Positions 3,061-63,937 of a stretch of DNA of 64,000 nt are shown one piece after another; position 1 is the first letter of the stretch; each line of letters begins with the position of its first letter. The DNA comes from Mustelus asterias. Lineage: Eukaryota. Where the stretch lies: NCBI RefSeq assembly GCF_964213995.1, contig NC_135813.1, positions 94,612,001-94,676,000 on the forward strand, given 5' to 3'. The notes beneath the pieces were generated by a model, which ran no database searches, was not told where the DNA came from, and worked only from the letters and a program-made list of their open reading frames with translations. A program made the translations under genes and the position numbers.

Positions 3061-3264
3061 TCAAAATGTTCTATCTATATCTCTTTCCCCCACACTCTCC
3101 CAGTCCCCCCAGCTTATGTTGAAAGTGACATTTTCAAGTATATGCAGTGACATTGGCCTGAAGCAGCCTGCAAATTTCAACGTTGCTTTGCTGTTGACCC
3201 CCAGCCCTTATCAAGCACCAAGCATCCCATTTTACTGTTTCTAGCTTCTTGCTGGAGAAAAATA

Positions 3265-3600
3265 TGGTGGCACAGCGGTTAGCACTGCAATCTCACAGCT
3301 CCAGAGACCCAGGTTCAATTCCGGCCTTGGGTTACCGTGTAGAGTTTGCACATTCTCCGCATGTCTGCGTGGGTTTCCTCCAGGTGCCCCCACAGTCCAA
3401 AGATGTGCAGATTTGGTGGACTGGCTATGATAAATTGCTCCCTGGAGTCCCAAGATGTGTAGGTTAGATGGATTAGCCATGGTAAATGTGTGGGGTTACA
3501 GGGATAGGACAGGGGGCTTGAGTAAGATACTTTGTCAGAGAGTTGGTGCAAACTTGATGGGCCTAATGGCCTCTTCTGCAATGCTGGGATTTTATCATTC
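3265..3600 (+). mobile_element. HE1-type tRNA-derived SINE
   Basis: A/B boxes, V-SINE core (gtttgcacattctcc..gtctgcgtgggtttcctcc), HER1-like tail. Confidence 0.85.
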
Positions 3601-5128
3601 TTTGTAACTACTGTTGCTGACACCAACCTCCAATGATTCTACTACCTTCTTTCTTCATGACCTTACTTCTGGTTCACCATCTCACCTCCTTACTAAATTT
3701 GAAACAATGATTTGCTTTTGGCATTATAAACACTTTAAAAATAAATCACTGGTTACCAGCTTAAGTGAACGAGCATGCATACTTTCTATACTACAGTAAA
3801 GAATGTGGTAAGGGTGTGGGGGAAAACACAAAATCTTGGCAATAGTTAGAAGGTTGGGGTAAGATGATTAAGCACAAATGGGCAACAGAGCACAAGGATT
3901 ATGCACAGTATGAATAGACTCCGGATCAGTGCACCTCAGAGCCTCGATCATCTTATAAATTTTAATTTCCCTACTTCAAAATGTAGGGATGAGTGGGATA
4001 GGGAGCTGGCCACTGGCGAAACAGGAAGGCCAGAAAGAGAGAAGTGAGTCTGTTTACACTAATTTGTGAGTAATCGAAGCAAAGATATTGGCTGGGATTC
4101 TCCCAAAACAAAACGAAGTGTCCAATGGGCAAGAAAATGGGAGAATCTCCTGCCCATTCTTTGGGCGTACTTACCAGCACAAATCTCCAATTCTGTGCAA
4201 TGCAGAGTGCCTTAGAGTGATTCATGCTGGAAAGTGGGGGGCTCGGCCTCATCCAGCCCAAGAGGCTGGCAGCATAGTGCTAAGCGGGCCATTGCGCATG
4301 TGCTGATCTGTCAGTAGGGAGCCCCCCCACTCCTTCTCCCCCTTACCAGCCTCCCGATCGCAGACCTCTTGTTTATTCCTGAACCCCCACCCTGATTGCT
4401 GGCCTACCGGCATCTCCCAAATTGTCGGTCTTCTCGACCTCCCAGCCCTGATCTACCCCCTCAGTGGCCAGCCCCTCCCCCCCCGCCCCCCCTCCGTTCT
4501 TGCTAGCAGCAGCAGCAGGGCATGAAAGACCAGAGAATTATCTGCAAAATAGCTTAAATCATTCACCTTATTGTGGCTTATTACATAAATTGGTTGTTGC
4601 ATTTGCTTAGATGGCCAAAAACGCCTCATCTCAAACTAATTCATATCATACAAAGTACTTCAGAAATTTCAAAGAGAAGTGATGTATACCATAAATAAGG
4701 CAAATAAAAATGATATTTTAGTTATTCTGAGTTTGAAATCATTAGTTAATAAATGATTAATTTAAAGGGACAAGATCGATCAGTACCCCTTAATCAAACC
4801 TAACTTCCTAACCCATCAAGCTCATTTAAAACTGGCAAACCCACCTGCTAGGAACAAAATCTCTGTTTGGAGTAAAGATTAATTAAACACTGAAGGCTCT
4901 AATTTGAGAGGCCTATGTTCTAGTACAATTGCTACTGGGCTATTTTCTTCACAACATTGATGTGCTATGAGAAAACAAGCAGGCCTTGTGAGGAAAACCT
5001 GCAAATGTTAAAAATGAATGAAGGGCAATTCCAAATAATTATTTTAAGCAGAATTCTCTTTTTGGAACAGGAAGCAAGATTGTTAGAATATCGCGATATT
5101 GACTTCCGCTTCACAGCTGAATCCTCAC

Positions 5129-5542: not shown

Positions 5543-5908
5543 AATGAAGCAAGGTGTGTTTGGGGGCGGCACGGTAGCACAGTGGTTAGCACTGCTGCTT
5601 CACAGCTCCAGGGACCTGGGTTCGATTCCCGGCTTGGGTCGCTGTCTGTGTGGAGTTTGCACATTCTCCTAGTGTCTGCGTGGGTTTTCTCCGGGTGCTC
5701 CGGTTTCCTCCCACAGTCCAAAGATGTGCGGGTCAGGTTGATTGGCCATGCTAAAATTGCCCTTAGTGTCCTGAGATGTGTAGGTTAGAGGGATTAGTGG
5801 GTAAATATGTAGGGATAGGGGGGTGGGGCTTGGGTGGGATTGTGGTCGGTGCAGACTCGATGGGCCGAAGGGCCTCTTTCTGTACTGTAGGGTTTCTATG
5901 ATTTCTAT
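5543..5908 (+). mobile_element. HE1-type SINE, full length
   Basis: ggcggcacggtagcacagtggttagcactgctgc..ggttcgattccc; tail gggccgaagggcct..ctgtactgtagg..ttctatg. Confidence 0.9.
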
Positions 5909-8673: not shown

Positions 8674-8798
8674 TGTAGAGATGCCGGCATTGGACTGGGG
8701 TGGGTACAGTAATAAGTATCACAACACCAGGTTAAAGTCCAACAGGTTTATTTGGAATAACGAGCTTCCGGAACGCTGCTCCTTCATCAGGTGACTCA
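8674..8798 (-). mobile_element. Penelope-like terminal fragment with a mutated hammerhead motif
   Basis: Homologous to 16825-16960; minus strand CTGATGA-A-GGAGC agc GTTCC-GGAA-GCTC (GAAA box changed to GGAA). Confidence 0.75.
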
Positions 8799-9945: not shown

Positions 9946-11609
9946 GCGATAAGTATCTCTTAATGCCTTCTGCCCGTAAATACTTAACTTCAATTACTAC
10001 AATTAATTGTAAAGACCTATTGAGAAATATTGTTAGCACAAGGCCGCCTGAGATTTTTGTTCAGGTCGTGATCCTCATACATGCTCAGCTGAGGTCAGCA
10101 AAGATGCAGTCAGTCCACTGATCCCAAAGTGCAAATCACTAACAAGCATAATATCAAGTAATACTAGCATCTGGGCTTTAAGATATAGCTACTGTAGTAA
10201 CAGTGAGTGATTTATTTTATGCTTAAAAGATTATTTTTAACAGCTAATATGTGGTGGGGAAGTATTTCATCATAAATACTACATTCCTCTTTCCAGAAGC
10301 TGTGTCAAAAGCACACAAAATATAAAAGATCACTCATGATCACTATCCAACTACACGGACAGGAAGTGAACATTTGTGGATATAAAGTGGGGACAAAACT
10401 CCTGAACAAGTTCCTACCAATGTTTATATTTGTGCCCGACAAGTGGCAATTTATTCAGATACCAAGATGTGACTGACTTTCAGCATGGAATCATTGCTCT
10501 TGGGAGAGGAAGAAAGAAAATTGGAAGTAAAGAAAATAATGAAACATCTACAACTATTGTATTTGGCTGTTCCTTCCTCAGCTTTGCACTTGAGATGTAT
10601 GAACTCAATAATCCAACAGGTGGCAGCCAGTGGTGAATAATTTAATTCAGAGAGAGAACAGAACTAACACCGCTTACAGGGGCGAGCACATCAAAATAAA
10701 AGCAATACTGTATGTTGGGAAACACCCTGAAGCAAAACTATATTGCATACTTTATGACAATGAAACAAAACCACAAATATTTAAACTCCCACAATATATA
10801 GTGCAAGTGTACTACAACCAGTTTTTAAAAATACAAGCATGTATCCCTTCAAAGCATGATCTTTGTGCAAAATCCAAAGTTTTATGCATATCGAAAATAC
10901 CTTTGCCAGGTATTTACCCAGCAGTAAATTTACACATACTACTTTGTTCTTTTGAAGCATTGAATTCGAGTTCACAGTCCATGAGAGCAATCTTCATTTG
11001 GTTAGATTTACCATGCTTCCCCCTCACCTGCAATTTGTCTGTGGCCATTTAGATCTTCCATGGATCGATTTTAGTTTATATTCTTGGCTCATTATCGCCC
11101 ATTCATTTTTGCCTTGTGTTATTCCCTTGTTGTCATTTAATCATTCCTACCCTCGATCTTATCATAGACCTTTCCTTCTTCACCTGCCTGCACCCCATTC
11201 ATATCTCCCATATCACTGGCTCTGTATTTGCTTAAAAACAGTTAATCTCCAACATGCTCCAGTTTTGATGAAGGATTATCAAAATGAAAGGTGTGTTTCT
11301 CTATCCACAGATGTTATCTGGTCTGCTGCACTTTTTATTTCAAATTTTGAGCATCTGCGGTATTTTGATTCTGAATCAAATCCAAGGATAGTGTTTCAAC
11401 AAGCAATGTGGATGCAAGAGGCCAGGGAATATTTGGATCGTTGTGCACACAATTCAGTCTCCATCTTGAAGGACGGCATTTAGTCTTTAACTTTATATTG
11501 CCATTATAAACTCCAATCACCACATTTATGATGGAAACTGAATTAATTTGTCAAAGAATGCCTTTTGCCAAGAAGTGGTGCTGTGGCACCTCTATTGGGA
11601 AAGGTGGAA

Positions 11610-11800
11610 AAACAAAACCAAAATACTACAGGCACTGGAAATCTCAAACAAAAACAAAGTGTAAAACACTCAGGCCAGGTAGCATCAGCGGAGAGAAAGA
11701 AGAGTCAATGTTTCAGGGTGATAACCTTTCATCAGAAGTTAGGAGAGTAGGAAAATAATTTACAAGTACAAGATAGGAGAAAAGTGGGGAGAGATGAGCA
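11610..11800 (-). mobile_element. Older copy of the second Penelope-like family with a hammerhead motif
   Basis: Minus 11740-11702 reads CTGATGA-AAGGT tatc ACCCT-GAAA-CATTGAC; related copies at ~11200-11370(+) and ~24575-24670. Confidence 0.6.
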
Positions 11801-11844: not shown

Positions 11845-12155
11845 TGCAGCTCCAGGGACCTGGGTTCGATTCCTGGCTTGGGTCATTGTCTGTGTGGAGT
11901 TTGCACATTCTGCTCGTGTCTGCGTGGGTTTCCTCCGGGTGCTCCGGTTTCCTCCCACAGTCCAAAGATGTGCGGGTTAGGTTGATTGGCCATGCTAAAA
12001 TTGCTCCTTAGAGTCCTGAGATGTGTAGGTTAGAGGGGTTAGTGGGTAAAATATGTAGGGATATGGGGATAGGGCCTGGGTGGGATTGTGGTTGGTGCAG
12101 ACTCGATGGGCCGAAGGGCCTCTTTCTGCACTGTAGGGTATCTATCTATCTATCT
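11845..12155 (+). mobile_element. HE1-type SINE, 5' truncated
   Basis: Near-identical to 5543-5908. Confidence 0.88.
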
Positions 12156-15454: not shown

Positions 15455-16821
15455 CTACAAAACAAAGAGAACATTTTTATGTTAAGATGACTAATTCTCC
15501 TTTTCATAGCAGTTTGGAGTTTTTGGATCTCCACACATTACAAGACATGGAATGAAATAAAGTAAAAAGTGGTAGGTGTATTATGCATATTTAGCAACCA
15601 ACTAGTCGGATTATAACAACAAAAAAGTGGCATTTATACACCCTGTTTATAGCTCCCATGCTTGTATATCATGCATTGTGAACAGAACCCACATTATTCA
15701 ATGATTTAATAGAGGTGTCCAAAAGGGAGGGGTCTTTAGAGTAAATAGGGAGAATCTGTTTCCACTACGAGAAAGATCAGTAACCAGAGGATATTGGCTT
15801 AAATTAATTGATAAAATTAACAAAGGGGAAGATGAGACATTTTAAAGCAGCGAGTTATGATCTGGAAAGCACTTGTATATATTTGAAAGGGAAGAAACAG
15901 TATTCCCTTTTGCCAGAGGATCAGTCTCCCCTTTATTTAATGTGGTCAAAGAAACCCTCCCTTGAAATAGTCACAAAATACCAAAGCACTTTACAAATTC
16001 ACCAGACTGGAGAACTTTACTACATTAAGGTTGAAAAACTGGAAAGAATACAACATAATGTAGCATATTTCGATTGCTTTGGTAGATTACTAAAGAACAG
16101 CTGATAGTCTTACAACACTTTAAACTTCTGATGACATGAACCATTTGCTTGTCATGGTATACAGTGAAAAAGAAAACTCATGGTAACAACATCCAGATAC
16201 CCTGAAAGCTCTCTATCTTGCCACCTCTCATCTAAAAACACCTCAAAACCTACTCTTTGATCACCTTACCTGAAGCTTCTACCGCTGCTCAGTGTGTAGT
16301 GTCCATTTAGGCATAACACTTCAGGAAGGATGTGAAGGCATTAGAGATTATGCATAATTTCCACGAAAGATGAAGGGCTTCAGTTACAGAATCACAATTG
16401 TTACAGCGCAGAGAACCACCATTTAGTCCATTGTGTCTCCACTGACTCTCGGAACAAACTTAATGCCTTTTTTGTGGTCACGGTCAAGACGTGAAGGAAA
16501 ATATGCATAAAGTTTTTTTTGTGCTTTTCAAAATGGACAATTGCTGAGTTGACAAGATAGAAGCCAGCATGTGACCAGCTGGAGCTAGCAGTTTCAAAGT
16601 TAACAAAGGTCAACATCTCAAATGCCTGGAATCTAACACTCCTTGCATTGCATAAACATTCCAGCCACGTCAAGACAATGGCCAAGCAGACGGTTGGTCT
16701 GCTCCAGCAACTTTGAACAAAGACAGCCCTTTGCATATCCTAATCTCCAACAATGGTGCTAATGATCTAAGCAGTAAATGCTCTAACACAATGGTTTCTA
16801 CAAGGGGGCTTCATTTAGTCA

Positions 16822-17572
16822 TGATGTGGAGATGCCGGCGTTGGACTGGGGTAAACACAGTAAGAAGTTTAACAACACCAGATTAAAGTCCAACAGGTTT
16901 ATTTGGTAGCAAAAGCCACACAAGCTTTCGGAGCTCTAAGCCCCTTCTTCAGGTGAGTGGGAATTCTGTTCACAAACAGAGCTTATAAAGACACAGACTC
17001 AATTTACATGAATAATGGTTGGAATGCGAATACTTACAACTAATCAAGTCTTTAAGAAACAAAACAATGTGAATGGAGAGAGCACCAAGACAGGCTAAAA
17101 AGATGTGTATTGTCTCCAGACAAGACAGCCAGTGAAACTCTGCAGGTCCACGCAACTGTGGGAGTTACAAATAGTGTGACATGAACCCAATATGATGTAG
17201 CATATTTGTACATAATATTTATGAACGGCCTCAACCGGGATATTGGGTTCATGTCACACTATTTGTAACTCCCACAGTTGCGTGGACCTGCAGCGTTTCA
17301 CTGGCTGTCTTGTCTGGAGACAATACACATCTTTTTAGCCTGTCTTGGTGCTCTCTCCATTCACATTGTTTTGTTTCTTAAAGACTTGATTAGTTGCAAG
17401 TATGCGCATTCCAACCATTATTCATGTAAATTGAGTCTGTGTCTTTATAAACTCTGTTTGTGAACAGAATTCCCACTCACCTGAAGAAGGGGCTTAGAGC
17501 TCCGAAAGCTTGTGTGGCTTTTGCTACCAAATAAACCTGTTGGACTTTAACCTGGTGTTGTTAAACTTCTTA
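16822..17572. mobile_element. Penelope-like element inserted as a 335-bp inverted repeat, with a hammerhead motif in each arm
   Basis: Arms 16859-17193 and 17240-17574; TSD CTTCATTTAGTCA 16809-16821 and 17573-17585; ORF tail GLNRDIGFMSHYL* 17227-17268. Confidence 0.88.
17472..17517 (+). ncRNA. Minimal type I hammerhead ribozyme motif (mirror copy on the minus strand at ~16916-16961)
   Basis: CAC-CTGAAGA-A-GGGGC ttaga GCTCC-GAAA-GCTT-GTG: core boxes, helix II, palindromic helix III (AAGCTT), short helix I. Confidence 0.75.
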
Positions 17573-17696
17573 CTTCATTTAGTCAACCAGAGAGCCGAGA
17601 GCCACAACACACCACAGGTAGAATGGCTTTCTTCTGTGCTATAACAATTGTGCAAATCTATATTTTTCATTTCTATGACCTGCCTGGTGAATTTAC

Positions 17697-17792
17697 GATG
17701 TGGAGATGCCGGCGTTGGACTGGGGTAAGCACAGTAAGAAGTTTCACAACACCAGGTTAAAGTCCATTAACCTGGTGTTGTGAGACTTCTTA
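17697..17792. mobile_element. Miniature fold-back copy of the same Penelope-like family
   Basis: Same terminal sequence (gatgtggagatgccggcgttggactgggg...); ~28-bp inverted arms; TSD CTGGTGMATTTAC 17684-17696 and 17793-17805. Confidence 0.8.
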
Positions 17793-17824
17793 CTGGTGCA
17801 TTTACTACATTATAAATGCATGCC

Positions 17825-23811: not shown

Positions 23812-26339
23812 GAATTAATCTCCAGATCAATTGAGATACAATACTGGTGCACATTTCCTTTCATGACAACAGTTACCCTACTTCAACAGAAATTTGTGTG
23901 AAGCACAGAGACATTTTGGTACAAATTAAGCGGCTATTATTATTTATTGTACTGCATTTCATTTTTGAGAATTTGAGCAGTACACAAGGAGCCTCGATAC
24001 ACTCAACAATTTATTGCACAAAATTAAAGCTCAAATATTTACTTTTTCACCCCTTCAAGTCATTAATTAGCTATTGCAACAAAATAAAAATGTTAAAACA
24101 TACATCCAGCTCTTCCACTGGCTCAGATGGTGAGCCAAACAGAACAAATGGCATAGCTTCAATTCCTTGTCTTTACTGAGTTGGCTCATTTCAACCAAGG
24201 CCACAATTAAGAAGGTTTCAAATATCCCCAGTCTGACAAGAAAATGTTTTTAAAAAATAAGTTAAAAAATTAACCAGTGCTTCTATTTGACAACTATCTT
24301 GTTAGAAAGTATACGTGTGCACACAGATATAAAGTTAAGACAGGGAGATACTCTGGTGCAATTTCCTTAGCAATTAAAAATCCTGGTGGCATTCAGTATT
24401 TAAGTTAATTCATGAAAGTGAATACTTGGTTGAGGTAGCAAGAGTGTGTGGCACTGGTGGAACGGTATCGTCACATGAAATGGTATGCTGAAGAGAAAAG
24501 TGGAGCAAATTAGAGGAGCTTTTAAAAAAATCTGTTTGTGGTGAGATGGTGACCTACAGTACTAAAATTACAATAAGCAAAATACTGCAGATGCTGCAAC
24601 CTGAAATAAAGAATAGCGGATGCTGGAAAAACTCAGCAGGGCTGCCAGCATCTACCAGGAGAAGAGTCAACAGGCTCAAAAGCAAGTTTCCAGGATTGTC
24701 ACAACTGAACAAAGTGTGTGTCACATGGAGGCAAAATTATTTTATTCTCTCTGACTCACACAGCCCCAACAGAGTTTAAATATGCTCAAACCTGGGGAGC
24801 AAGCAATCCAATCTCAAATCTTATCCAATGGAACTGGTAATGGTGATTATATTAGATTTTCCTCTTGTTCTGCTGAGAAGTATCAGTTTGGAGCACTGGC
24901 TATTGTTCAAGGAATATGTAGCTGCGAATAGAGTCCTCAGCATATTTACTTTTCCCAATCCCAGTTTGGAGCGGCAGCTGGGGGTGGGGGCGGGTTTATT
25001 GTACCATTTTGGCACAAATTTGCCCTTGCAATAAGCAAGTTAACTCCAAAACCATGCTATTCACAAATGAGAAAACATTTCCCATAAGACAGACAGACAA
25101 ACAAAAACAGGATCTCCAAAAAGATAAAGATGATCTTTTTCTAATGCAGTCTTAGCGGGTGGTGTTGCTTTAGATTACAAAATAATTCACATCTCAATAG
25201 GAATTCTAATCTCACGTAACATCTGCCTACTTGCTTGTCAGGGCAGGTACGTGTGTAGGCACATTTGCTGATTTAATATATTCCCAACAGCATCAGATGG
25301 TTAAACTTCAAAGCAACACAACCAGCACATTTAAAATTGGTGCATAGAAGCACAACAAATAAAATCCAATTTCCCACTCAGTCTTTGTGTAGCAGCTCCT
25401 TCATCTCATCTTATAAAATGCTATCAATCCCAGTTATTCATAATGGAGAAAATCTCAAGGTCAAAACTTTTGTTCAAATTCTCATTAATCTTAGACTTAA
25501 AATAATTCCATATGAAATATCAAATTTACTGTCTCACCGCGACCCACATCATTGGGTTGTGGGTTGTTCATATCTTAAATCAATTCCATTGAATGGAACA
25601 AGGGTTGGCTCTTTGGATAAGTCTAGGAGCTGAACCACAACTAACTAGCTCCAGTACAAAAAAATACAATCAAGCAATACTGCTGCAAACCCATAAGTAA
25701 AAGGGTTCTCTGGGATGTACCGAAGTGCTAGTTCTTCATTAGCACTTCAGGAGATTTTCTGATTATAACAACATTGAACATTTCAATTTTAAACAATCTC
25801 TACAAAGCAATTTTAGACTCAGCCAAGGGGGGATTTTGTGCTCCCATTTTTATGAATTGTGACAGGTCCCCCATGACCTGCTCCTGGTGAGCAGAACCTG
25901 CTGGAGGTGCACAGCTGAGTGTGGCCCCTGGGGGAGAGGGTTATGTCCAGGCAGTACCCTGGCACTGTTGGAAGAGGGGCTGTTGCTTGGATGGATGTTC
26001 CATGTGTGTGCGGGGGTGATGGGTGGTTCTATTTTTATTTGTTTAAAATTGGACCACTCCAATCTTTTAACAACCTAAGTTGCTGGTGGAGCAGGCTTAA
26101 CCACAGCCTGCCCTGCCAGCGTGATGCTGACTTTTCTTTTGACTCAGAACCTAAAATGAACACACCCTTGGGCAGGCAACTTCCATTCTATTTTTCACTC
26201 CCGGTGTGCCTCTCTGCAAAATATAATCAGAAAATTCCACCTATAGATTCTGGAGGAGCTTAAGATTCCTTGGAAGAAAGGTGGAAAAGGTGTGTTCTAA
26301 TGTTTTCATTGAACCAATGCTTTCTGTTAAGATGCTTAC

Positions 26340-36325: not shown

Positions 36326-37170
36326 TAGTTCCAAAGCTTAGGTGCTGAGGCAGCTAGAGGCACAGGCATCAATGATGCAGCAATTCAAATTGGATTTTCT
36401 TAAGAGGCTAAAATTTAATGGATGCAAATACTCAAGAAGGTAGTGGGGCTGGGGGAGGTTACAGGGATACAGTAGGGCAAAGCTAAGAGAGAGCCTGAAA
36501 ACAAGGATGAAAATTTTAAAATTGAATGTTGCTCGACTGGGAACCAGTGAAGGTCAGCAAGCACAGAAATGATGGATGAATATTAATATGATTGAAAACA
36601 TACAAACAGCAGAGTTTTAGATTAACTCAAGTTTAGGAAGGATAGAATATAGGAGGCTGGCTGGCTGGGAGTTCACTGGGATAGCCAAGTCTTGAGGTAA
36701 CAAAGGCACACACCAAGGTTTTCAGCAGCAGATGAGCAAAGGCGGGGCAGAATTGTGAGATGGTACGTAGGTGGAAATAGGCAGTCGCAGTGATGGTGCA
36801 TCATGTGGTCAAAAGCTTAACTTGGGGTCAAATGTGACATTGAGATTATCAGGAAAAGGTGTAATTGGTAGCGAGAGAATGGAGTTTGTAACAGAGGCTG
36901 AAGACAATGCCTTCAATCTTTTCTATATTGGAGAAAATTTCATCACTGGATGTCACTCAAGCAGTCTGATAATTTAGCAACAGCAGAAGAGTGGGAATGG
37001 AGGAGGAGACACAAAATATAAAAAATTCCTTTAATGTAACTTCATAAATTGATATAACTGCCTCATTACTCAATACTAGAGGGGAATACTATCTGTTACT
37101 GTAGCTATAGGCTACTGGCTGACCAGTTATTGAAAAATGCACTCTGCAATTTACAATGTGCAATTTTAAA

Positions 37171-37370
37171 TAAAAGCAAAAATACTGCAGATGCCAGAAA
37201 TCTGAATTATAAACAGAAAATGTTGGAAAAACTCAGCAGGTTTGACAGCATGTGTTGGGAGAGCAGAGTTAATGTTTTGAGTCTGTACAGGCTCGCAACA
37301 TTCGTTCTGTTTCTCTCAACACAGATGCTGCCAGACCTGAGTTTTCCCAGTAGTTTTCTGTTTTTATATC
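37171..37370. mobile_element. Fold-back element of a second Penelope-like family
   Basis: Terminus aaaagcaaaaatactgcagatg..; imperfect inverted arms; TSD TGCAATTTTAAA 37159-37170 and 37371-37382. Confidence 0.7.
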
Positions 37371-37511
37371 TGCAATTTTAAAGACCTGACGAAGATATTA
37401 ATTAGTAATGAACATTGTCATTGCTTTGGAGGGAAAACACAAGTACATTTTCATCATAATTAAGTTCACAAGTGATTTAACCTACATTAGATTATATTTG
37501 TAATTGATATA

Positions 37512-37870: not shown

Positions 37871-39913
<2,043 letters not shown>

Positions 39914-44320: not shown

Positions 44321-45093
44321 TTTTTTGATCTCACCCTGCTCACAATCTTTACCAGAAGGTGTTGACTACTTAGCCCCTTGGCATAACTGAAGAATCAAAC
44401 AGCACAAGGAGAGGCCATTATGTGCTGCATGCTGGTGCTAGTTCCATGAAAGAGCCATCGATGTTCCACCACACTGCTCATTCCCTATATCCCTGTATCT
44501 TTTCCTTCAACTTTATATCCAATTCCCTTTTGAAAGCTACCATTAAATCTGCTTCCACATCCTTTCAAGAAATGCACCCTAGATCATAACTTGCTATTTT
44601 TAAAAACAAAATCTTCTCATCTCCCCTCTGGTTCATATTAAATAGTTATATTAAATGTGTGCCCTCTGGTTCCTAACCATCCTGGTGGTGGAAACAGTTT
44701 CTCTCTATTTGCTCATCAAAACTCCATATCATTTGGGCCATCTCCCTGTAGCACCCCTGCTCTAAGGAGAATAATCAGAACTTTTCCAGTCTCTCCACGT
44801 AACTGAAGTCCATCATCCCTGATACTATTCTAAGAACTTTCCTCTGAAATCCTTCCTGAAGTAGAGAGCCCAGAATTACACAGGAAAATCCCTTGCTTTT
44901 GTACCCTATGGCTCTCTTCATAAAGCTTTGGGTCTGATGTGCTTTATTTAACAGCCTGATCAACTAATCTTGCTACCCTCAAAGGGTTTCTTTAATGAAA
45001 CTTTCAAGTCTGTCTGTTCCTGCACCCCATTTAAAATGATACAATTTAATTTATATTGCCTTCATTTTCCCTTCCAAAATATCTAATTTCATA

Positions 45094-45282
45094 AAAGCAA
45101 ATTACTGCAGATGCTGGAATCTGAAACCAAAAGAGAAAATGCTGGAAAATCTCAGTAGGTCTGGCAGCATCAAAAGGAGAGAAAAGAGCTGATGTTTCGA
45201 GTACAGATGACCGTTTGTCAAAGTTGACAAAGCTTTGACAGATACTGCCAGACCTGCTGAGATTTTCCAGCATTTTGACATA
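45094..45282. mobile_element. Fold-back element of the second Penelope-like family
   Basis: Inverted arms (aaaatgctggaaaatctcag..gtctggcag / ctgccagacc..ctgagattttccagcatttt); TSD TAATTTCATA 45084-45093 and 45283-45292; degenerate hammerhead TTGACAAA..CTCGAAACATC on minus. Confidence 0.7.
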
Positions 45283-45638
45283 TAATTTCATATTTTGCTG
45301 CAGTAAATTTCTTCTGCATATGTCTGCCATTTCTCCATTCCTAATATGTCCTTGTGAAAACTGCTACTATCCTTCCTGAGTTTTTTTTGTTATCTGCACT
45401 TTTTGAAATTATGTAAGCCCTTCATATCCAAATTCAGGTTGTTAATATATATCTTTAAAAAACGGAGTGGTCTTCAATAATGATCCCTGGGGACACAACT
45501 TCAAACTTCCCTCCAGCCTCCTTCCTGTCTCTTGGCCAAAGTTGTATCCACACTGTCACTGCTCCCTTTGATCCATGGAATTCAATTTTGGTGACAAGTG
45601 TATTATGTGGTGCTCAAACCCCAATTAAAAGTCAATAT

Positions 45639-47825
45639 TGTGACGTTACTGTGCCTTTAAGAAAAGTATTTTAATCATGTGTCTCTAGCAGTTCTTTTAA
45701 GAGGGCCTGGCCTTTTGTGATTGTTGCCATACTGTCTGTGCGGTTATATTTTATGGTTGCTGTAGCAGGATAATTGCAACAATGTTTATTTATAATCTGG
45801 GCCTAATGCAATGTCTTGGTCAGGTGGTTCCTTCCCAGAGAAATCTCAGCGTTACTTTCTGTTTGGAGCTGTTAGGACTCCAGACGGCAAGCAGTGTGTT
45901 TCTGCCTCTCTCCCTGTTATTGGAAATTTGGCTCTTGTTGCTGACTAGCTAATAGCTAGAGGCAAGGAATGCCTTTGCCTCTCAAAGTGTGAGAGGCAAG
46001 TCCCAGGGCCGGAAGGCCTCAGTGTTTTCAACTCAACATACAAAGGAGTAATCCACAGCAGGGTTTGGAAAGCTGCAAAGTCTAACATCACATGAGCATA
46101 CTTACTTTCTGTGCTAAACCTAAGTATATTTGTATGTGGTCCCGTTGTTTAAGAAGGGTAGCAGGGATAACCCAGGAAATTATAGGCCGGTGAGCTTGAT
46201 GTCCGTGGTAGGGAAGTTGTTGGAGAGGATTCTTAGAGACAGGATGTATGTGCATTTAGAACGGAACAATCTCATTAGTGACAGACAGCATGGTTTTGTA
46301 AGAGGGAGGTCGTGCCTTACAAATTTGGTGGAGTTTTTTGAGGAAGTGACAAAAACGGTTGATGAAGGAAGGGCCGTGGATGTCGTCTATATGGATTTCA
46401 GTAAGGCATTTGACAAAGTCCCACATGGCAGGTTGGTTAAGAAGGTTAAGGCTCATGGGATACAAGGAGAAGTGGCTAGATGGGTGGAGAACTGGCTTGG
46501 CCATAGGAGACAGAGGGTAGTGGTCGAAGGGTCTTTTTCCGGCTGGAGGTCTGTGACCAGTGGTGTTCCGCAGGGCTCTGTACTGGGACCTCTGCTATTT
46601 GTGATATATATAAATGATTTGGAAGAAGGTGTAACTGGTGTAATCAGCAAGTTTGCGGATGACACGAAGATGGCTGGACTTGCGGATAGCGAAGAGCATT
46701 GTCGGGCAATACAGCAGGATTGCTGGAAAATTGGGCGGAGAGGTGGCAGATGGAGTTTAATCCGGATAAATGCGAAGTGATGCATTTTGGAAGAAATAAT
46801 GTAGGGAGGAGTTATACAATAAATGGCAGAGTCATCAGGAGTATAGAAACACAGAGGGACCTAGGTGTGCAAGTCCACAAATCCTTGAAGGTGGCAACAC
46901 AGGTGGAGAAGGTGGTGAAGAAGGCATATGGTATGCTTGCCTTTATAGGACGGGGTATAGAGTATAAAAGCTGGAGTCTGATGATGCAGCTGTATAGAAT
47001 GCTGGTTAGGCCACATTTGGAGTACTGCGTCCAGTTCTGGTCGCCGCACTACCAGAAGGATGTGGAGGCATTAGAGAGAGTGCAGAGAAGGTTTACCAGG
47101 ATGTTGCCTGGTATGGAGGGTCTTAGCTATGAGGAGAGATTGGGTAGACTGGGGTTGTTCTCCTTGGAAAGACGGAGAATGAGGGGAGATCTAATAGAGG
47201 TGTACAAGGTATGAAGGGTATAGATAGGGTGAACAGTGGGAAGCTTTTTCCCAGGTCGGAGGTGACGATCACGAGGGGTCACGGGCTCAAGGTGAGAGGG
47301 GCGAAGTATAACTCAGATATCAGAGGGACGTTTTTTACACAGAGGGTGGTGGGGGCCTGGAATGCGCTGCCAAGTAGGGTGGTGGAGGCAGGCACGCTGA
47401 CATCGTTTAAGACTTACCTGGATAGTCACATGAGCAGCCTGGGAATGGAGGGATACAAACGATTGGTCTAGTTGGACCAAGGAGCGGCACAGGCTTGGAG
47501 GGCCGAAGGGCCTGTTTCCTGTGCTGTACTGTTCTTTGTAGGGGTTTGTTTGATTGGAACAGTACATTTAGCTGTTAAGTATATACAATATCATTGTTGT
47601 TTCTTTTCTTGTTTGTAATTGGTAAAAGTTATTGCTAATTGTCTTATTATATGTTAACTTTATTCTTCAATAGACTTTGTTTGATAGAAGCTCTCTTGTG
47701 GGTCATTTGAATCATGCCCAGAGTGAAACATCTTGTGCTTGTCCATGCCAAAGTTCAAAGTACAAAATTTACGATCGAGGCTGACTTCATAAAATACTTG
47801 GGAGTTTCTGACCTGGATTATAACA
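45639..47825 (+). mobile_element. Solo LTR (Gypsy-like, TG...CA) interrupted by the young CR1
   Basis: Starts TGTGACG, ends TATAACA; 4-bp TSD ATAT 45635-45638 and 47826-47829; flanks rejoin as an older minus-strand CR1. Confidence 0.7.
46135..47534 (+). mobile_element. Young 5'-truncated CR1/HER1 LINE (RT domain plus 3' UTR)
   Basis: NYRPVSL, QHGF, DFSKAFDKVPH, GVPQGSVLGPLLF, FADD; frameshifts near 46720 and 47210; TSD TTTGTA 46129-46134 and 47535-47540. Confidence 0.93.
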
Positions 47826-57313: not shown

Positions 57314-58614
57314 GTAATGTTAACCTTGTTAACCTGTGATGCTAGTCATCACTGAGGTTCGATGTACCGTGTGATGAGAGAATATTAAGTTAAAGTCATT
57401 AAGGGCCTGGTTTGGTGAATTGTTTTATTCCAAGACCCATGTCAATTACCAAGGATCGTGTAGTACAGGTGACTTGCCATTGGTGGGCAGCCTTTTCATT
57501 CCCATTGAGACTCCATGCAAAATGATGTGAATTGAGCTGAGATCAAGGATTTCAGTCTTATGTGGAATCATCCTGCGGGTCATGTCCTCGCTTGAACAAA
57601 TATGGGAAAGGGTGAGATAAGTTGAAATGTTAATAGTGGGCCGTAATCTTGGATTTTGGATTTGAGGGGAAAGGAAAAGCTGAGTAAAGCAAGGAGTGGC
57701 CATAATTCTAAGTGTTTGGTCTTTATTGAGTGAGAATATGTCAGGAGTAACCAACCATTTGTGTTTGCTGAAATGTGTCATGCTTTATGCCCTTGCTCCT
57801 AAAACTCTGTTCTGATGGGAGAAGTACTGGATAATACCAAGGATGATTGGCTGTGACAAAATGAGCCTTCCTTACACTTTGAAATGTCTAACCAATTTAA
57901 TTTGTGTCTGCTGTAATACTCCTGAGAGTTCAGCCTTTTTGTTTTGCACTAGAAAATTGAATCATCCAGCAATCTGTATCAAGCAGTGTAAATAACAGCA
58001 ATAATTCTATTTTTTAAGCATATAGTTTGAATTGAGCAATTTCAAAATTAAATTAGAATGAACATTAGGTACCAGTGAATCTTCTCGTGATAAGTTTTGT
58101 GATGCACTTTTTCATGACAGGAGAGCAAGATCAACTTTTTGCTTCCCCTCCTCCAGAGTTATAAAACATTCCACCGCCCTATCCCCTGAAACACATCTGA
58201 TTGTTTTTAAGAGAGGCTTCTTCTGTTGTGTGGTTAAAAACCTGCTGCAGGTTTGTGCTCAGCAAGTGCCCACAATTGAAAATAAGGTGGATCACCACGT
58301 ATGGTGTACATCTAGGCTCCAGGCTTACTTCGCAGTCCAAAGATGTGAATTGACCACGCTAAATTGCCCCTTAGTGTCCTAAGATGTGAGGGTTAGGGGG
58401 AATTAGCGGGGTAAATACTTCACAATGCAAATAAGGTCAATATTCATGGCTGTTCACACTAGGAGTGTGTCATGCCCCAGAATTCGGGCCTGGAACTACA
58501 AACTGCTGTTGGGACAGCAGCAGTGGGAAGTTGGATCAGCAACCTGTATGTTGCTTGGCTGTAAACAAATGCAACAGACATGCAGTGGATTTAAAGATAT
58601 CGGCTATATTTATC

Positions 58615-59428
58615 ATATAATCATATACTCCCCACAGTGCAGAAGGAGGCCATTCGGCCCATCAAGTCTGCACTGACAACAATCCCACCCAGGCCCTATC
58701 CTTGTAACCCCACATAATCCCCCCTGACACTAAGGAGCAATCCCACCCAGACCTGTTCCCCATAACCCCAAGTATTTACCCCGCTAATTCCCCCTAACCT
58801 ATACATCTTGGAACACTAAGGGGCAATTTAGCATGGTCAATCCACCTAACCTGCACATCTTTGGACTGTGGGAGGAAACCGGAGCACTCGGAGGAAACCC
58901 ACACAGACACGGGGAGAATGTGCAAACTCCGCACAGTCACCCGAGGTCGGAATTGAACCCGGGTCCCTGGCATTGTGAGGCAGCAGTGCTAACCACTGTA
59001 TCACCGGGCCACCCGGTTATATATGGTAATAAATAGAGCATCACTGACATCAGTGATGGTCAGTCTTGGCATCACTGCTTACAGGATGAGCTTTTCATAG
59101 AATCCCTACCGTGCAGAAAAAGGCCATTCAACCCATCGATTCTTCAATGACTCACTGACAGAGTATCTTACTCAGTCCCTCTCCACCGCCCTATCCCCAT
59201 AACCCCACATATTTCCCATGGCTAATCCATCTAACCTAAGGGGCAATTCACCAATGGCCAATCCACTTAACTTGCACATCTTTGGAATGTGGGAGGAAAC
59301 TGGAGCACCCGGAGGAAACCCATGCAGACACGGGGAGAATGTGCAAACTCCACACAGACAGTCACCTAAGGTCGGAATTGAACCTGGCGCTGTGAGGCAG
59401 TGGTGCTAACCACTGTGCCACCATGCCA
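58615..59428 (-). mobile_element. Two tandem HE1-type SINEs (~58615-59010 and ~59095-59428)
   Basis: Reverse complement HE1; the first has an internal duplication. Confidence 0.83.
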
Positions 59429-60880
59429 GCCTGAGAGTCAACCACATTGCTGTGGCTCTCAAGTCACATGTAGGCCAGACCAGGTAAGGATGGCAGATTT
59501 CCTTCCCTAAAGGACATTAGTGAACCAGATGGGTTTTTCCAATAATCGACAATGGTTTCATAGTCATCAGTAGATTCTTAATTCCAGATTTTTCTAAAAA
59601 TTTAAATTCCACCAGCTGCTGTGGCGGGATTCGAATCTGGGATCCCAGAACATTAGCTGAGCAGGATTAATAGTCCAACAGTAATACCACGACTGTATTG
59701 TCCCCCAAAAGACTTTCTAATTTGAATGATGTTGATTCAGTGAACTACTTGGAAACCTGTTGCATCTGAGAACTCAAGATATAATGGACAATCCATTTAT
59801 TCTGCTATTAGGAATATGACCAATGGTTAAGGTAGCTTTTTACCTCCTGGATCAGAAAGCCTTAATTGCCCAGAGGGATAAATGCAGCATTCTGAGTGTC
59901 ACCTAAATCCTGGCAGAGGGAATTCAGAGATTGGTCAAGAATTTTTTTTTTGGCTTGCAAACATGCAAACTTTTAGTTCTGCTTCAAATGAAAGCAGCAT
60001 GAAAAGACTGCTCTTTGTTTGAAATGTTTTTGACACTTTTGAGGTGTGATGAACACACAGACTAAGTTGTCACATGTTTGATTAGTGTGTAATAATAAGT
60101 AGTGCCACCTTCTCCGATTTCACAGTATAGTTATGAAGACAGTTACTTAACACATGTTTCATTCCCCCCTCTGGCTTTTTATATATCTTTTTTTAAATAA
60201 ATCTCCTTGAATGTCAATATTGGACTAAAAAGATTTACAAAACATTGAATGCATTCAAGAGCTGGCTGGATATAGCACTTGGAGCGGACGGGATCAAATG
60301 TTATGGGGAGAAAGCAGGATTAGGCTATTGAGTTGGATGATCAGCCATGATCGTAATGAATGGCAGAGCAGGCTCGAGGGGCCAAATGGCCTCCTCTTGC
60401 TCCTATCTTCTATGTTTCTACAACTAAAATTTCTCTTGTTGCTATCTTCCATGTTTCGATAAGATTGCATGAACTGTTTGTAGGAAGATAATCTTTTTGC
60501 TAAATAGTTCTTTTAAGTGGATACTTTATGGAGGAAGGATTAAAAAGGTCTCTTTAAATGATGTATCAAATCACAATTTTTGAACTTTTTTGTGTTCATT
60601 CACGAGGTTTGAATTGTATCTGCTTCTTGATCTTCTTGTGATCAAGAACAGCAAAGGTTCTACAGGCTGTGTCCATAGAGACCAACAGCTGTGTTTATTT
60701 AATGCTCTATCCGTCTGTATCTCCCTCGAGTCCTTGCCCTCGTGCTTGCCCTCCCACTCGCTTCTTCCTCTCTTTCTCTCTTCCTCTCTTTCTTCATTTT
60801 CTCATTCCCCTTAACACACATGCTTTCTCTCTCAAAGACCACGAGAGTTACAAATCTGTATGATGTTAAACAGGCATCTA

Positions 60881-61166
60881 ATCATAGAATCCCTACAGTG
60901 CAGAAGGAGGCCATTCGGCCCATCGAGCCTGCGTTTACAACAATCCCACCCAGGCCCTATCCCCGTAACCCCATGTATTTACCCTGCTAATCCCCCTGAC
61001 ACCGAGGGGCAACTTAGCATGGCCAATCCACCTAGCTTGCACATCATTGGAATGTGGGAGGAAAACCACACAGACCTGGGGAGAACGTGCAAACTCCACA
61101 CACAGGCTGGAACTGAACCCGGGTCTCTGGTGCTGTGAGGCAGCAGTGCTAACCATTGTGCCACCC
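60881..61166 (-). mobile_element. HE1-type SINE
   Basis: Reverse complement HE1. Confidence 0.83.
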
Positions 61167-61654
61167 TGATTTGTGTCAGACTGAAATGATAAATCTATTA
61201 AGAATGACTGTAGAAAATGGAGTACACAGAAGATTATAGTTTTAGAAATCATGTGCAGTCTTCATGTTGAGCAGCTTAACGATTTTTTAGTTGTTGAAAT
61301 AATATCCTTATTCGAGAAATTGTGGGTATGATTTTCTGGCCCCTTTCAGCAGAGATGCAAATCCCATTATAGTCGGACACTCTTGCAAAAGGGCCATAAC
61401 AGGATTTGAGCCAAGGACATCTCAGAATGAGATTCCCCCCACCACGTGATGTCATCATTTACATTTATTTACATATATTTAAATATTCAAAACTGGCTTA
61501 ACACCATTTCTTCCAGGAACATCATATGTTGCCACCAGTAGGAATCACCATTGCTCTTGAAAAATGGAGATAACCACACTGGGGGCTTGAAGGCCAGTGA
61601 AGCCCCTGGGTGGTCAGAGGCAGGGCAGGGTGGTGCCCTAACACTGCCCCCTTT

Positions 61655-61745
61655 TTTGATTTGATTTATTATTGTCACATGTATTAGCATACAGTGAAAA
61701 GTATTGTTTCTTGTGCGCTATGCAGACAAAGCATACCGTTCAAAG
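61655..61745 (-). mobile_element. Short 3' end of the Rex/Babar-like LINE
   Basis: Reverse complement matches 39250-39314 joined to 39920-39930, giving the uninterrupted tail. Confidence 0.75.
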
Positions 61746-61777
61746 AAAAACAAAGCATACCCTGGCACCCTTGACAC

Positions 61778-61997
61778 AATAAGAGTTTTAACAACACCAG
61801 GTTAAAGTCCAACAGGTTTATTTCGTAGCAAATACCAACCCTGTGTTCATTCTCGTGACCAACAAAATCAGAATGAGATGGTGGTTTGATAAGTGGAATG
61901 GTATTTGCTACCAAATAAACCTGTTGGACTTTAACCTGGTGTTGTTAAAACTCTTACTGTGTTCACCCCAGTCCAATGCCGGCATCTCCACATCATG
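61778..61997. mobile_element. Fold-back Penelope-like element with a host-derived spacer
   Basis: Arms 61780-61837 and 61899-61956; TSD ACCCTTGRCAC 61767-61777 and 61998-62008. Confidence 0.85.
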
Positions 61998-63196
61998 ACC
62001 CTTGGCACTGACAGGATGGCACTGCCGGGGAGGAGGAGTTTAGCGGGGCCGGGGCTTGGAGGCAACCCCATAGCGGGGGTTTGGTTTGTTAATAGTGATG
62101 GTACTTTTTAAAAGTGTGAATCTATTTTTAAGTTAATAACTTCTATATTCCACTTTGTAATACTATGGTTTACCATTATGATGGGGAGGCTGAGTGTTCG
62201 ATTTTGTTACCTTTGGACCAACAAGTGGTTTAAAAGGCTATTGAAGCATGTCTTTGAAATACTTCAAAACCAAAAGGGGGGGGGGGAGGCGGGAGAGAAG
62301 CGCTGATGCCTCGATTGTGGCATAGGGAGGGTGGGGAGGCAACGATGCCCTGAAGACCAGATGCCGGTGATTAGATGGGGTGGGAGAGGGTCTTCAATGT
62401 TGGTTTGAAAGAGGCCTGGCTTGCCGCCATCTTTAGGTTCCATCCCTCACAATAGCAGCACAAAACATGCCCCCCCCCTATAAAATGGCGAAGTGTGGGA
62501 TGATCTGGGTGGAAAAGCTGCCTGTCTCTCTGGGGAGGAACAAGCTGGTTTTCAGACAGAACCTGGCACACTGCCATTTTTTGGGAAAATTCTGTCCAGT
62601 GTTTTTGTTTGGGTCAGGAAGAGAATTTGAATAGGGTTGGACAACATCAAGCTTAGGTAAAACATGTACCCGGTTTCTTTTTGAGAAATTGTTGTTGCTT
62701 TAAAACAAAGTGGGAGTTTCCAACCCTGTGTTCATTCTCGTGACCAACAAAACCAGAATGAGATGGTGGTTTGCTAAGTGGAATGGTCACATCAGTACAT
62801 TTCACTTCCTTTGAAATTGAAAATTGTGGAATGTTCCATGCATAGTTTCAATAATACCTTATTTGAAAAGGGTGACACCTTTTACCTTGGAGAATATTTA
62901 ATTCTTCACCTCTGATTCACACTCAACAATTGAAATGTTGCTTACCATAAACAACACTTATATATTTTACATAGGAATGAGTCCCAGATAGACTAATCTA
63001 GCCATGGTTATGTGTAGTTACTAATATCAGCAAGTCCACTTTAAAGTTTGTAGCATTTGATATTTGTGTTATTTATTTTTCCAGCTTTTGAGTTTTGTGA
63101 GGTTGGCTTAACTGAATTAGAATATTGGATGAAACTTATTTCCAGTACAATAAGGGTTCAAGGAGGAGGAAGAGTTGGTGGAGTTGTATCTCCACC

Positions 63197-63496
63197 AGCA
63201 CGGTGGCACAGTGGTTAGTACCGCTGCCTCACTGCGCCAGGGATCCGGGTTCGATTCCCGGCTTGGGTCACTGTCTGTGCGGAGTCTGCATGTTCTCCCC
63301 ATGTCTGCGTGGTTTTCCTCCGGGTGCTCCGGTTTTCTTCCACAGTCCGAAAGACGTGCTGGTTAGGGTTCATTGGCTGTGCTATATTCTTCCTCAGTGT
63401 ACCCGAACAGGCACCGGAGTGTGGCAACTAGGGGATTTTCTCTAACTTCATTGCAGTGTTAATATAAGCCTACTTGTGACATTAATAAATAAACTT
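63197..63496 (+). mobile_element. SINE with HE1 head and alternative tail
   Basis: Same tail. Confidence 0.8.
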
Positions 63497-63870
63497 CTAT
63501 TACCTTTGGAGCTTCGGATCAATGTGAGTGCTGTTTTGGGGTCAGGATTTATAATGCTGCCCTTTCAGCTTTCTGGAATAGGAAGAACCTGGGTAGATGG
63601 AACAAAGTCTCATGGAGTTTTAAAAGCAATTAAGAATTTTAAGCCAGATCCTAGTGATTTTTTTTGGATAATAATGGTGACATTCATGCTTTTAAGGATC
63701 TCGCAAATACCTTTTTTTAAAGAAGATGACTGGTGATCAAATTGCTCCAATAAGTTAAAGTCAGCTTTGTTTTCCTGATAGCTGTGCTTCTCAAAGATGA
63801 ATGGAAGGCAGAGTCTTCCTATTATGAAGGTGAGAAGTATAAAGTACTTAACTCTCTACTTGTCCTACAG

Positions 63871-63937
63871 GAGTAAGTCTGGATTCTGGGGCTGGCGGAC
63901 AGACAAGACTGATGTTATTCAAGCACATGAGGCCAAG
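63871..63937 (+). CDS. ANKRD13A: ANKRD13A exon 7 ([22 protein letters not shown]); gene continues beyond window end
   Basis: AG/GT boundaries, 67 nt, [11 protein letters not shown] motif. Confidence 0.93.

Follow-up and report, generated by a model that had tools for sequence, protein, structure and literature searches.

A copy of flanking intron DNA between the arms of a Penelope-like fold-back element in ANKRD13A of Mustelus asterias

Background

EN+ Penelope-like elements (PLEs), as described in PMC8557442, PMC3846280 and PMC11167929, are 5'-truncated and adjoined by an inverted copy; their terminal repeat contains a minimal hammerhead, a tail of 30-40 nt is present at a single end, and the target-site duplication (TSD) measures about 8-12 bp. 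The layout of inverted copy, one-sided tail and TSD is set out in the first two of these papers. The steps that form the inverted structures have been called undefined or not yet validated (PMC8557442, in its accessible part; PMC11167929), and the published inverted junctions, as far as the accessible text of these reports goes, are direct or palindromic. The anole PLE (Poseidon PAc) cleaves and extends both strands, with two RNA start sites that bracket the tail; cleavage by its ribozyme is dispensable in vitro, and no RNA-seq reads start at the cut site (PMC11167929). Host DNA captured by the rotifer element Pen1 forms a 0.9-1.5-kb spacer before the 3' repeat, which the accessible part of PMC3846280 does not map to the flank of the same insertion. 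The minimal hammerhead is recognised by CUGAnGA, an extra base before G10.1, a long helix II, GAAA, a palindromic 15.2-16.2 and a short helix I (PMC4209133, accessible part).

In L1 twin priming, both target ends are primed, the TSD is kept, microhomology is found at the inner joint, and the inverted part derives from a different RNA segment (PMC2912911, accessible part). Genomic templates have been reported for 22 L1 insertions, typically shorter than 250 bp and no farther than 15 bp from the site (10.1101/2024.08.27.596794, in the portion available), and for 3 cases in the available portion of PMC11702581. In R2/PRINT, before the 5' joint is made, the 3' end of the cDNA finds its template in the cDNA itself or in nearby target DNA; R2 is site-specific for rDNA, has no second fixed RNA start, and joins its antisense part to target DNA rather than to a second cDNA (PMC11371274, accessible part). 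Polymerase-theta inserts are direct copies of the flank with microhomology at entry and exit, sometimes in reiterated patches; in C. elegans most are shorter than 25 bp, and in about 85% of cases priming takes place no more than 10 bp from the break, copying in trans off the opposite break end giving direct inserts and snap-back in cis giving reverse-complement inserts (PMC5068794, accessible part).

A fold-back element in an ANKRD13A intron

The sequence analysed here is a 64-kb stretch of Mustelus asterias DNA, called the window; all positions refer to it. The features of the fold-back, element A, are as follows.

57315..63870, plus strand: ANKRD13A intron containing element A and the donor, placed by Pfam, tblastn and protein alignment
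61767..61777, plus strand: left TSD copy of A, ACCCTTGACAC, 11 bp with one mismatch
61778-61997: element A, a 5'-truncated Penelope-like end
61774..61837, minus strand: inverted arm of A, the reverse complement of the terminal repeat without the tail, its outer end coinciding with the second start that is fixed across the family
61835..61902, plus strand: filler of A, 68 bp, a direct copy of 62720-62787 (66/68)
61899..61958, plus strand: direct arm of A, the 5'-truncated element end, beginning about 3 nt 3' of the point where copy B is predicted to be cut by its hammerhead
61959..61997, plus strand: one-sided tail of A, 39 nt, the stretch separating two putative reverse-transcription starts (compare PMC11167929)
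61998..62008, plus strand: right TSD copy of A, ACCCTTGGCAC, 10/11 relative to the left copy
62720..62787, plus strand: donor, intron DNA 712 bp beyond the right TSD, not unusually structured

The earlier note had reported inverted arms of 58 bp enclosing a copy of nearby DNA. The arms are present, but the figure of 58 bp omits the junction overlaps; with these included, 61774-61837 and 61899-61962 are complementary at 62 of 64 positions, and the full stem is 64 nt. The copy was confirmed by alignment and by BLAST: filler and donor agree at 66 of 68 positions in direct orientation, 885 bp apart from start to start (E = 7e-28, query against the 64-kb window). Outside element A, the donor is the sole match to the filler at E<=1 in the window, and the donor region (62600-62900) has no further match there better than E = 0.65; self-comparison of the window revealed no other repeats across 62000-63195, and no duplication was seen around 62720-62787. 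Within these 64 kb there is thus no third copy, in agreement with a single-copy donor. The filler is genuinely a well-preserved templated copy inside a PLE-like fold-back.

The strong hairpin into which element A folds (z -14.6) is to be expected of any inverted repeat and is not evidence for a small-RNA role. Selection of the donor for its foldability was considered and rejected: with DNA parameters its z is +1.0 on the top strand and -0.2 on the bottom strand, and 735 (top) and 302 (bottom) of 1110 neighbouring 68-mers fold equally well or better.

The host gene is ANKRD13A: one exon peptide is 100% identical to the Mustelus asterias protein (the best of 9 matches, from 22 candidates, all of them from cartilaginous fishes), and the plus strand carries ankyrin and ANKRD13_C pieces according to Pfam, which was applied to 170 of the 320 listed frames, namely those of the plus strand from 29.5 kb onwards. 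The short exon at 63871 has no Pfam match within that set and was located by tblastn. In the M. asterias protein, the exon that ends at 57314 and the one at about 63871 meet at residue 187 with no exon between them; element A and its donor therefore lie within one intron, and the description of the donor as intronic is correct. Element A is a scar, with no function or effect on ANKRD13A in evidence.

Another repeat adjoins the left TSD of A, as a truncated fragment (61654-61761, with a relative at 39245-39314) in which 61726-61737 is repeated at 61750-61761, a 12-nt local duplication at the fragment end that looks like a templated scar. Elsewhere in ANKRD13A introns, 46124-46777 is an RVT_1 fragment (E 3e-31) of a multi-copy LINE-like repeat that does not belong to the family of A.

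Related copies and Penelope-like identity

The window holds four copies of the family, A and the three listed here.

16811..17584, minus strand: copy B, arms 329/334 identical, minimal hammerhead core, putative last ORF codons, TSD 10-12 bp, 31-nt filler at 17194-17224
17697..17795, minus strand: copy C, a short fold-back with no foreign filler, outer start as in A, TSD 11-13 bp
8674..8794, minus strand: copy D, without inversion, degenerate minimal hammerhead core

The adjacent inverted 5'-truncated copy is present in A, B and C and absent in D, for which no TSD was identified. The tail is confined to one end and lacks poly(A), its 39 nt in A falling within the 30-40 nt of PLEs; the TSDs, of 11 (or 7) bp in A, 10-12 bp in B and 11-13 bp in C, may be set beside the 8-12 bp of PLEs. 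A, B and C therefore have in common the inverted 5' copy, the tail on one side and TSDs of 10-13 bp, and the Penelope-like architecture proposed earlier holds. None of the four copies, all too truncated, retains a reverse transcriptase or endonuclease domain, so that membership of the PLEs rests on structure and the enzyme is presumed; these structural features support the assignment of the family as Penelope-like. The last codons of B, about 14 in number, presumably resemble the end of a PLE ORF; a protein search with them (14 informative residues) returned no candidate.

The features of the minimal hammerhead, read by eye against the accessible text of PMC4209133, are found in B and are degenerate in D, whereas A is truncated 3' of the core. 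Helix II folds in B (z of the whole fragment -0.4), and Rfam gave no match in the window at gathering score and did not report the hammerhead. Sub-threshold Rfam matches of B to microRNAs were rejected, as they reflect merely a long perfect hairpin. The arms of copy B, each about 350 bp, pair almost perfectly into a hairpin with two hammerhead cores in opposite orientation, a possible source of dsRNA if transcribed. Exact-pattern scans of a prokaryotic genome collection for copies of the A family, made as a contamination check, gave 0 matches; blastn of B against plasmids gave no match, and the 2 supplementary files of PMC4209133 that were at hand contain no shark sequences.

Repeats within the window cover about 17% of its length. 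A high-copy SINE-like family of about 300 bp occupies about 16 sites (e.g., 3252-3613, 59095-59431, 60875-61177 and 63196-63500), and the SINE-like pair 5603-5899 and 11847-12145 is 94% identical. An intronless frame at 39309-39791 matches both domains of ribosomal protein S5 (uS5) and is probably a processed pseudogene; beside it, a frame with an ALKBH8_N match (38382-39179) is probably a LINE remnant. A short sequence (2698-2784) that borders an apparent LINE fragment is present in tandem and then inverted, resembling reiterated snap-back synthesis.

Joints, target site and age of the filler

The target site of A is itself a degenerate GGCAC repeat, and its TSD can be read in two ways: as 11 bp with one mismatch (10/11 matched), the reading given in the earlier note, or as a perfect 7 bp, the last 4 bases then being common with the arm, which would start 4 nt earlier. 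The 11-bp reading is favoured because the sister copies have TSDs of matching length, 10-12 bp in B and 11-13 bp (one mismatch) in C.

At the inner joints, the last 3 bases of the inverted arm (CCA) overlap the start of the filler, and TGG(T) overlaps its end; these are identical element bases read in opposite arms. TGG is in register with copy B, which indicates that it belongs to the element and is a true microhomology, and the fourth base is different in B. Microhomology is secure at 3 nt per joint, a feature shared with polymerase-theta inserts. The CCA and TGGT microhomologies of the first reading thus survive as at least 3 nt at both joints, but they are not independent and the fourth base is unsupported by B. 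There are 27 CCA, 53 TGG and 16 TGGT in 1861 downstream bases; by simple arithmetic, at least 3 nt would occur at a random junction with a chance of about 5%, and at both joints with a chance of about 0.3%.

Donor and copy (66/68), arms (62/64) and TSD (10/11) have diverged to a comparable extent. Such similarity implies that the filler dates to about the time of insertion, either during integration, as originally proposed, or soon after; the mechanisms considered below are not separable in this way. That the filler was templated locally, at or just after integration, is very probable.

Fillers in other fold-backs

The filler of copy B has one candidate donor.

16051..16072, minus strand: candidate donor of the B filler, direct, 13 nt exact, 24/31 filler bases covered, about 740 bp beyond the tail-side TSD

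The match at 16051-16070 is 18/20 counting the junction, on the same side and in the same orientation as in A, and the donor distances beyond the tail-side TSD are 712 bp for A and about 740 bp for this candidate. At all four settings, the 20-bp window 16053-16072 ranked top on both strands of the 64 kb. By a coverage statistic designed post hoc, after the match was known, 4 of 600 composition-matched 31-mers reach 24 covered bases within 1 kb; an exact match of at least 13 nt is found for 43 of 2000 such 31-mers, and the alignment score of B is reached by 4 of 3000 shuffles within 1 kb and by 19 of 300 anywhere in the window. The B filler is AT-rich, and a rival match at 31.1 kb scores 29 against 30. 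Local templating of the B filler (null about 1-2%) is suggestive only; the filler may be patchy, of the reiterated-priming type.

A second, older family in the window likewise combines a fold-back with a one-sided tail (37158-37382 and 45085-45294), and is represented also by fragments at 24566-24662, 11294-11373 and 11610-11745; in the one at 11.7 kb, the minus strand contains a hammerhead-like core. No filler interrupts the palindromic centre of the fold-back at 37158-37382, which has a TSD of 12-13 bp; the centre of the one at 45085-45294 consists of short self-derived repeats, for which no convincing flank match was found in the window. Host-derived filler was found in neither of these fold-backs nor in C, so that among the five fold-backs examined in the window one case is clear (A), one is suggestive (B) and three are negative. 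The claim that this locus records how Penelope inversions form was therefore an overreach.

Arm ends and comparison with known systems

With copy B as the ruler, the outer ends of the inverted arms lie at +4 in A, 0 in B and +1 in C, within 4 nt of each other in 3 of 3 fold-backs of the family (for B the value 0 was read off the alignment, a scripted local alignment having continued to +7). The direct copies end at +41 (A), about +40 (B), +36 (C) and +34 (D), and the tail is thus on one end only. The fixed outer end points most readily to a second round of priming, for which the single-cDNA path first suggested makes no provision. Snap-back alone would leave the outer end unfixed, and the idea that the inverted arm is the first cDNA folded back on itself is therefore unsupported in its simple form, the arms of A, B and C all starting within 4 nt of one element base.

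The inner ends of the two arms differ by 0 nt in A, 16 nt in B and 6 nt in C, while truncation lengths vary about tenfold; such near-symmetry across differing truncations calls for a shared RNA end or a fold-back step. Both inner ends of A are at -60, and the ribozyme cut is predicted in B at -63, a proximity that hints weakly that the inner ends of A may reflect a ribozyme-cut RNA end. This link is just a lead, since it concerns 1 of 4 copies, the sequence of B is slightly different there, and cleavage is dispensable in the anole PLE. The sequence is compatible with a jump by either cDNA, and with a last jump in cis as well as in trans.

Set against the systems outlined above, each with the limits of the cited portions, the A family resembles EN+ PLEs in its 5' truncation, adjacent inverted copy, tail, TSD and hammerhead, and A differs from their published inverted junctions in having a short filler from its own flank at the inversion point. 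It resembles L1 twin priming in its TSD, in the microhomology at its inner joint and in the apparent priming of both target ends; in A, however, the arms repeat one 60-nt segment from the fixed second start and are not adjacent, non-overlapping RNA segments, so that twin priming describes the working of A and not an L1 structure. The priming of cDNA 3' ends on nearby target DNA is common to R2 and the events proposed for A, but the rDNA specificity of R2, its lack of a second fixed start and its antisense joint to target DNA set it apart. Polymerase-theta inserts share with A the direct copying of the flank and the microhomology at entry and exit, and with B, perhaps, the reiterated patches. 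A filler of 68 bp from about 0.7 kb fits neither the theta norm (usually <25 bp, primed about 10 bp from the break) nor that of L1, whose templates typically lie within 15 bp of the site. Locally templated fillers are thus a kind already known from L1 and R2, whereas their occurrence at a PLE inversion point and a reach of 0.7 kb appear undescribed: none at PLE inversion points was found in the titles and abstract openings searched, a range that does not establish absence from print.

A possible path of integration and its rivals

The reading preferred here, with a probability of roughly 45%, is a twin-primed PLE insertion in which microhomology-mediated end joining sealed the inner joint and left a locally templated filler there. 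The endonuclease would cut the two strands about 11 bp apart, as the TSD suggests, and both 3' ends would be extended on element RNA, the downstream one from the tail start and the upstream one from a second start about 39 nt inside; the geometry of these starts is observed, and the priming is proposed by analogy with the anole PLE. About 60 nt beyond the second start both cDNAs would halt; the RNA may have had a common 5' end there, close to the ribozyme cut. Being of like polarity, their ends would be unable to pair; the downstream end would be resected, exposing the bottom strand, on which the upstream cDNA end (...CCA) could anneal at 62720, be extended by 68 nt away from the break and dissociate. 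TGG(T) would then re-prime on element cDNA, either that of the partner or its own as a hairpin, and fill-in and ligation would yield the order arm, filler, arm, tail.

The direct orientation of the A filler supports copying in trans, of which it is the expected product according to the accessible part of PMC5068794, and the path would require a resected strand only, without strand invasion. The B filler, with its same side, same orientation and similar distance, is counted in favour of the path; the near-symmetry of the inner ends counts against it, as independent cDNAs would not give such symmetry and a fold-back would. The inserts in the accessible part of PMC5068794 are shorter and nearer than the A filler. 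A bolder version, in which shark PLE integration proceeds through a programmed two-ended intermediate, with fixed-site priming, cDNAs that stop together (sometimes at a ribozyme-cut end) and, regularly, a tail-side host bridge about 0.7 kb off, is rather unlikely to be correct.

The near-symmetric inner ends are accounted for by an amended form of the path first suggested, in which the tail-primed cDNA jumps to the top strand at 62787, copies 68 nt towards the break and snaps back to make the arm, which anneals to a short product of the second start. R2 cDNA ends in human cells prime on the cDNA itself and, less often, on nearby rDNA (PMC11371274, accessible part), and self-priming has been proposed for rotifer PLEs (PMC3846280, accessible part). 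However, resection would remove the tail-side top strand, so that strand invasion or a sister chromatid would be required, and unless the second priming is added, the fixed outer end is unexplained; the amended path is a minority possibility.

It is improbable that the filler was acquired after integration, through breakage in the middle of a near-perfect head-to-head palindrome and a repair that introduced a local, stabilising insert. Perfect palindromes do break and rearrange centrally, and spacers of 35-52 bp stabilise them, but 93% of 118 centre rearrangements are deletions and inclusion of a spacer is uncommon (PMC8701086, a review, accessible part). The equal divergence of arms and filler suits an event at insertion and one shortly afterwards alike, whereas fold-backs without spacer survive in the window (C; 37158-37382) and the tail-side position of the donor is not predicted by such repair.

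The donor lies in the same intron as the element and on the transcribed strand, and a tail-primed cDNA that jumped would yield a direct copy, so the reverse transcriptase might have switched to nascent ANKRD13A pre-mRNA, copied 68 nt and gone back to element cDNA, much as the R2 reverse transcriptase jumps among RNAs and captures U6 (PMC11371274, accessible part). This switch is quite improbable: the cDNA would have to jump into the interior of a long RNA with 3 nt of homology, and the candidate donor of B lies upstream, about 25 kb away from the first coding exon found for ANKRD13A. That there was no capture at all, the 68-mer being a dispersed repeat or a subfamily part, the loop having been copied to 62720, or the assembly being wrong, is highly improbable even with a search base of 64 kb, as the window has no third copy and no duplication around 62720-62787, B spans the filler position and has the hammerhead there instead, and the two mismatches argue against read-level duplication.

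Implications for Penelope-like elements

A filler taken from an element's own flank shows on which side and strand the last joining step took place and how far it reached. Given four copies of the family in 64 kb, the genome should suffice for purely computational tests of the models. If the pattern fails genome-wide, element A is a neat, ordinary repair scar; if the tail-side 0.7-kb pattern or truncation at the ribozyme site is found genome-wide, PLE integration in vivo would be constrained. A shared stop at the ribozyme cut, if true, would be in-vivo evidence for cleaved RNA as the template, and if the two-ended model is true, shark fold-backs would allow resection or looping during integration to be measured and would supply hairpins whose loops differ from locus to locus.
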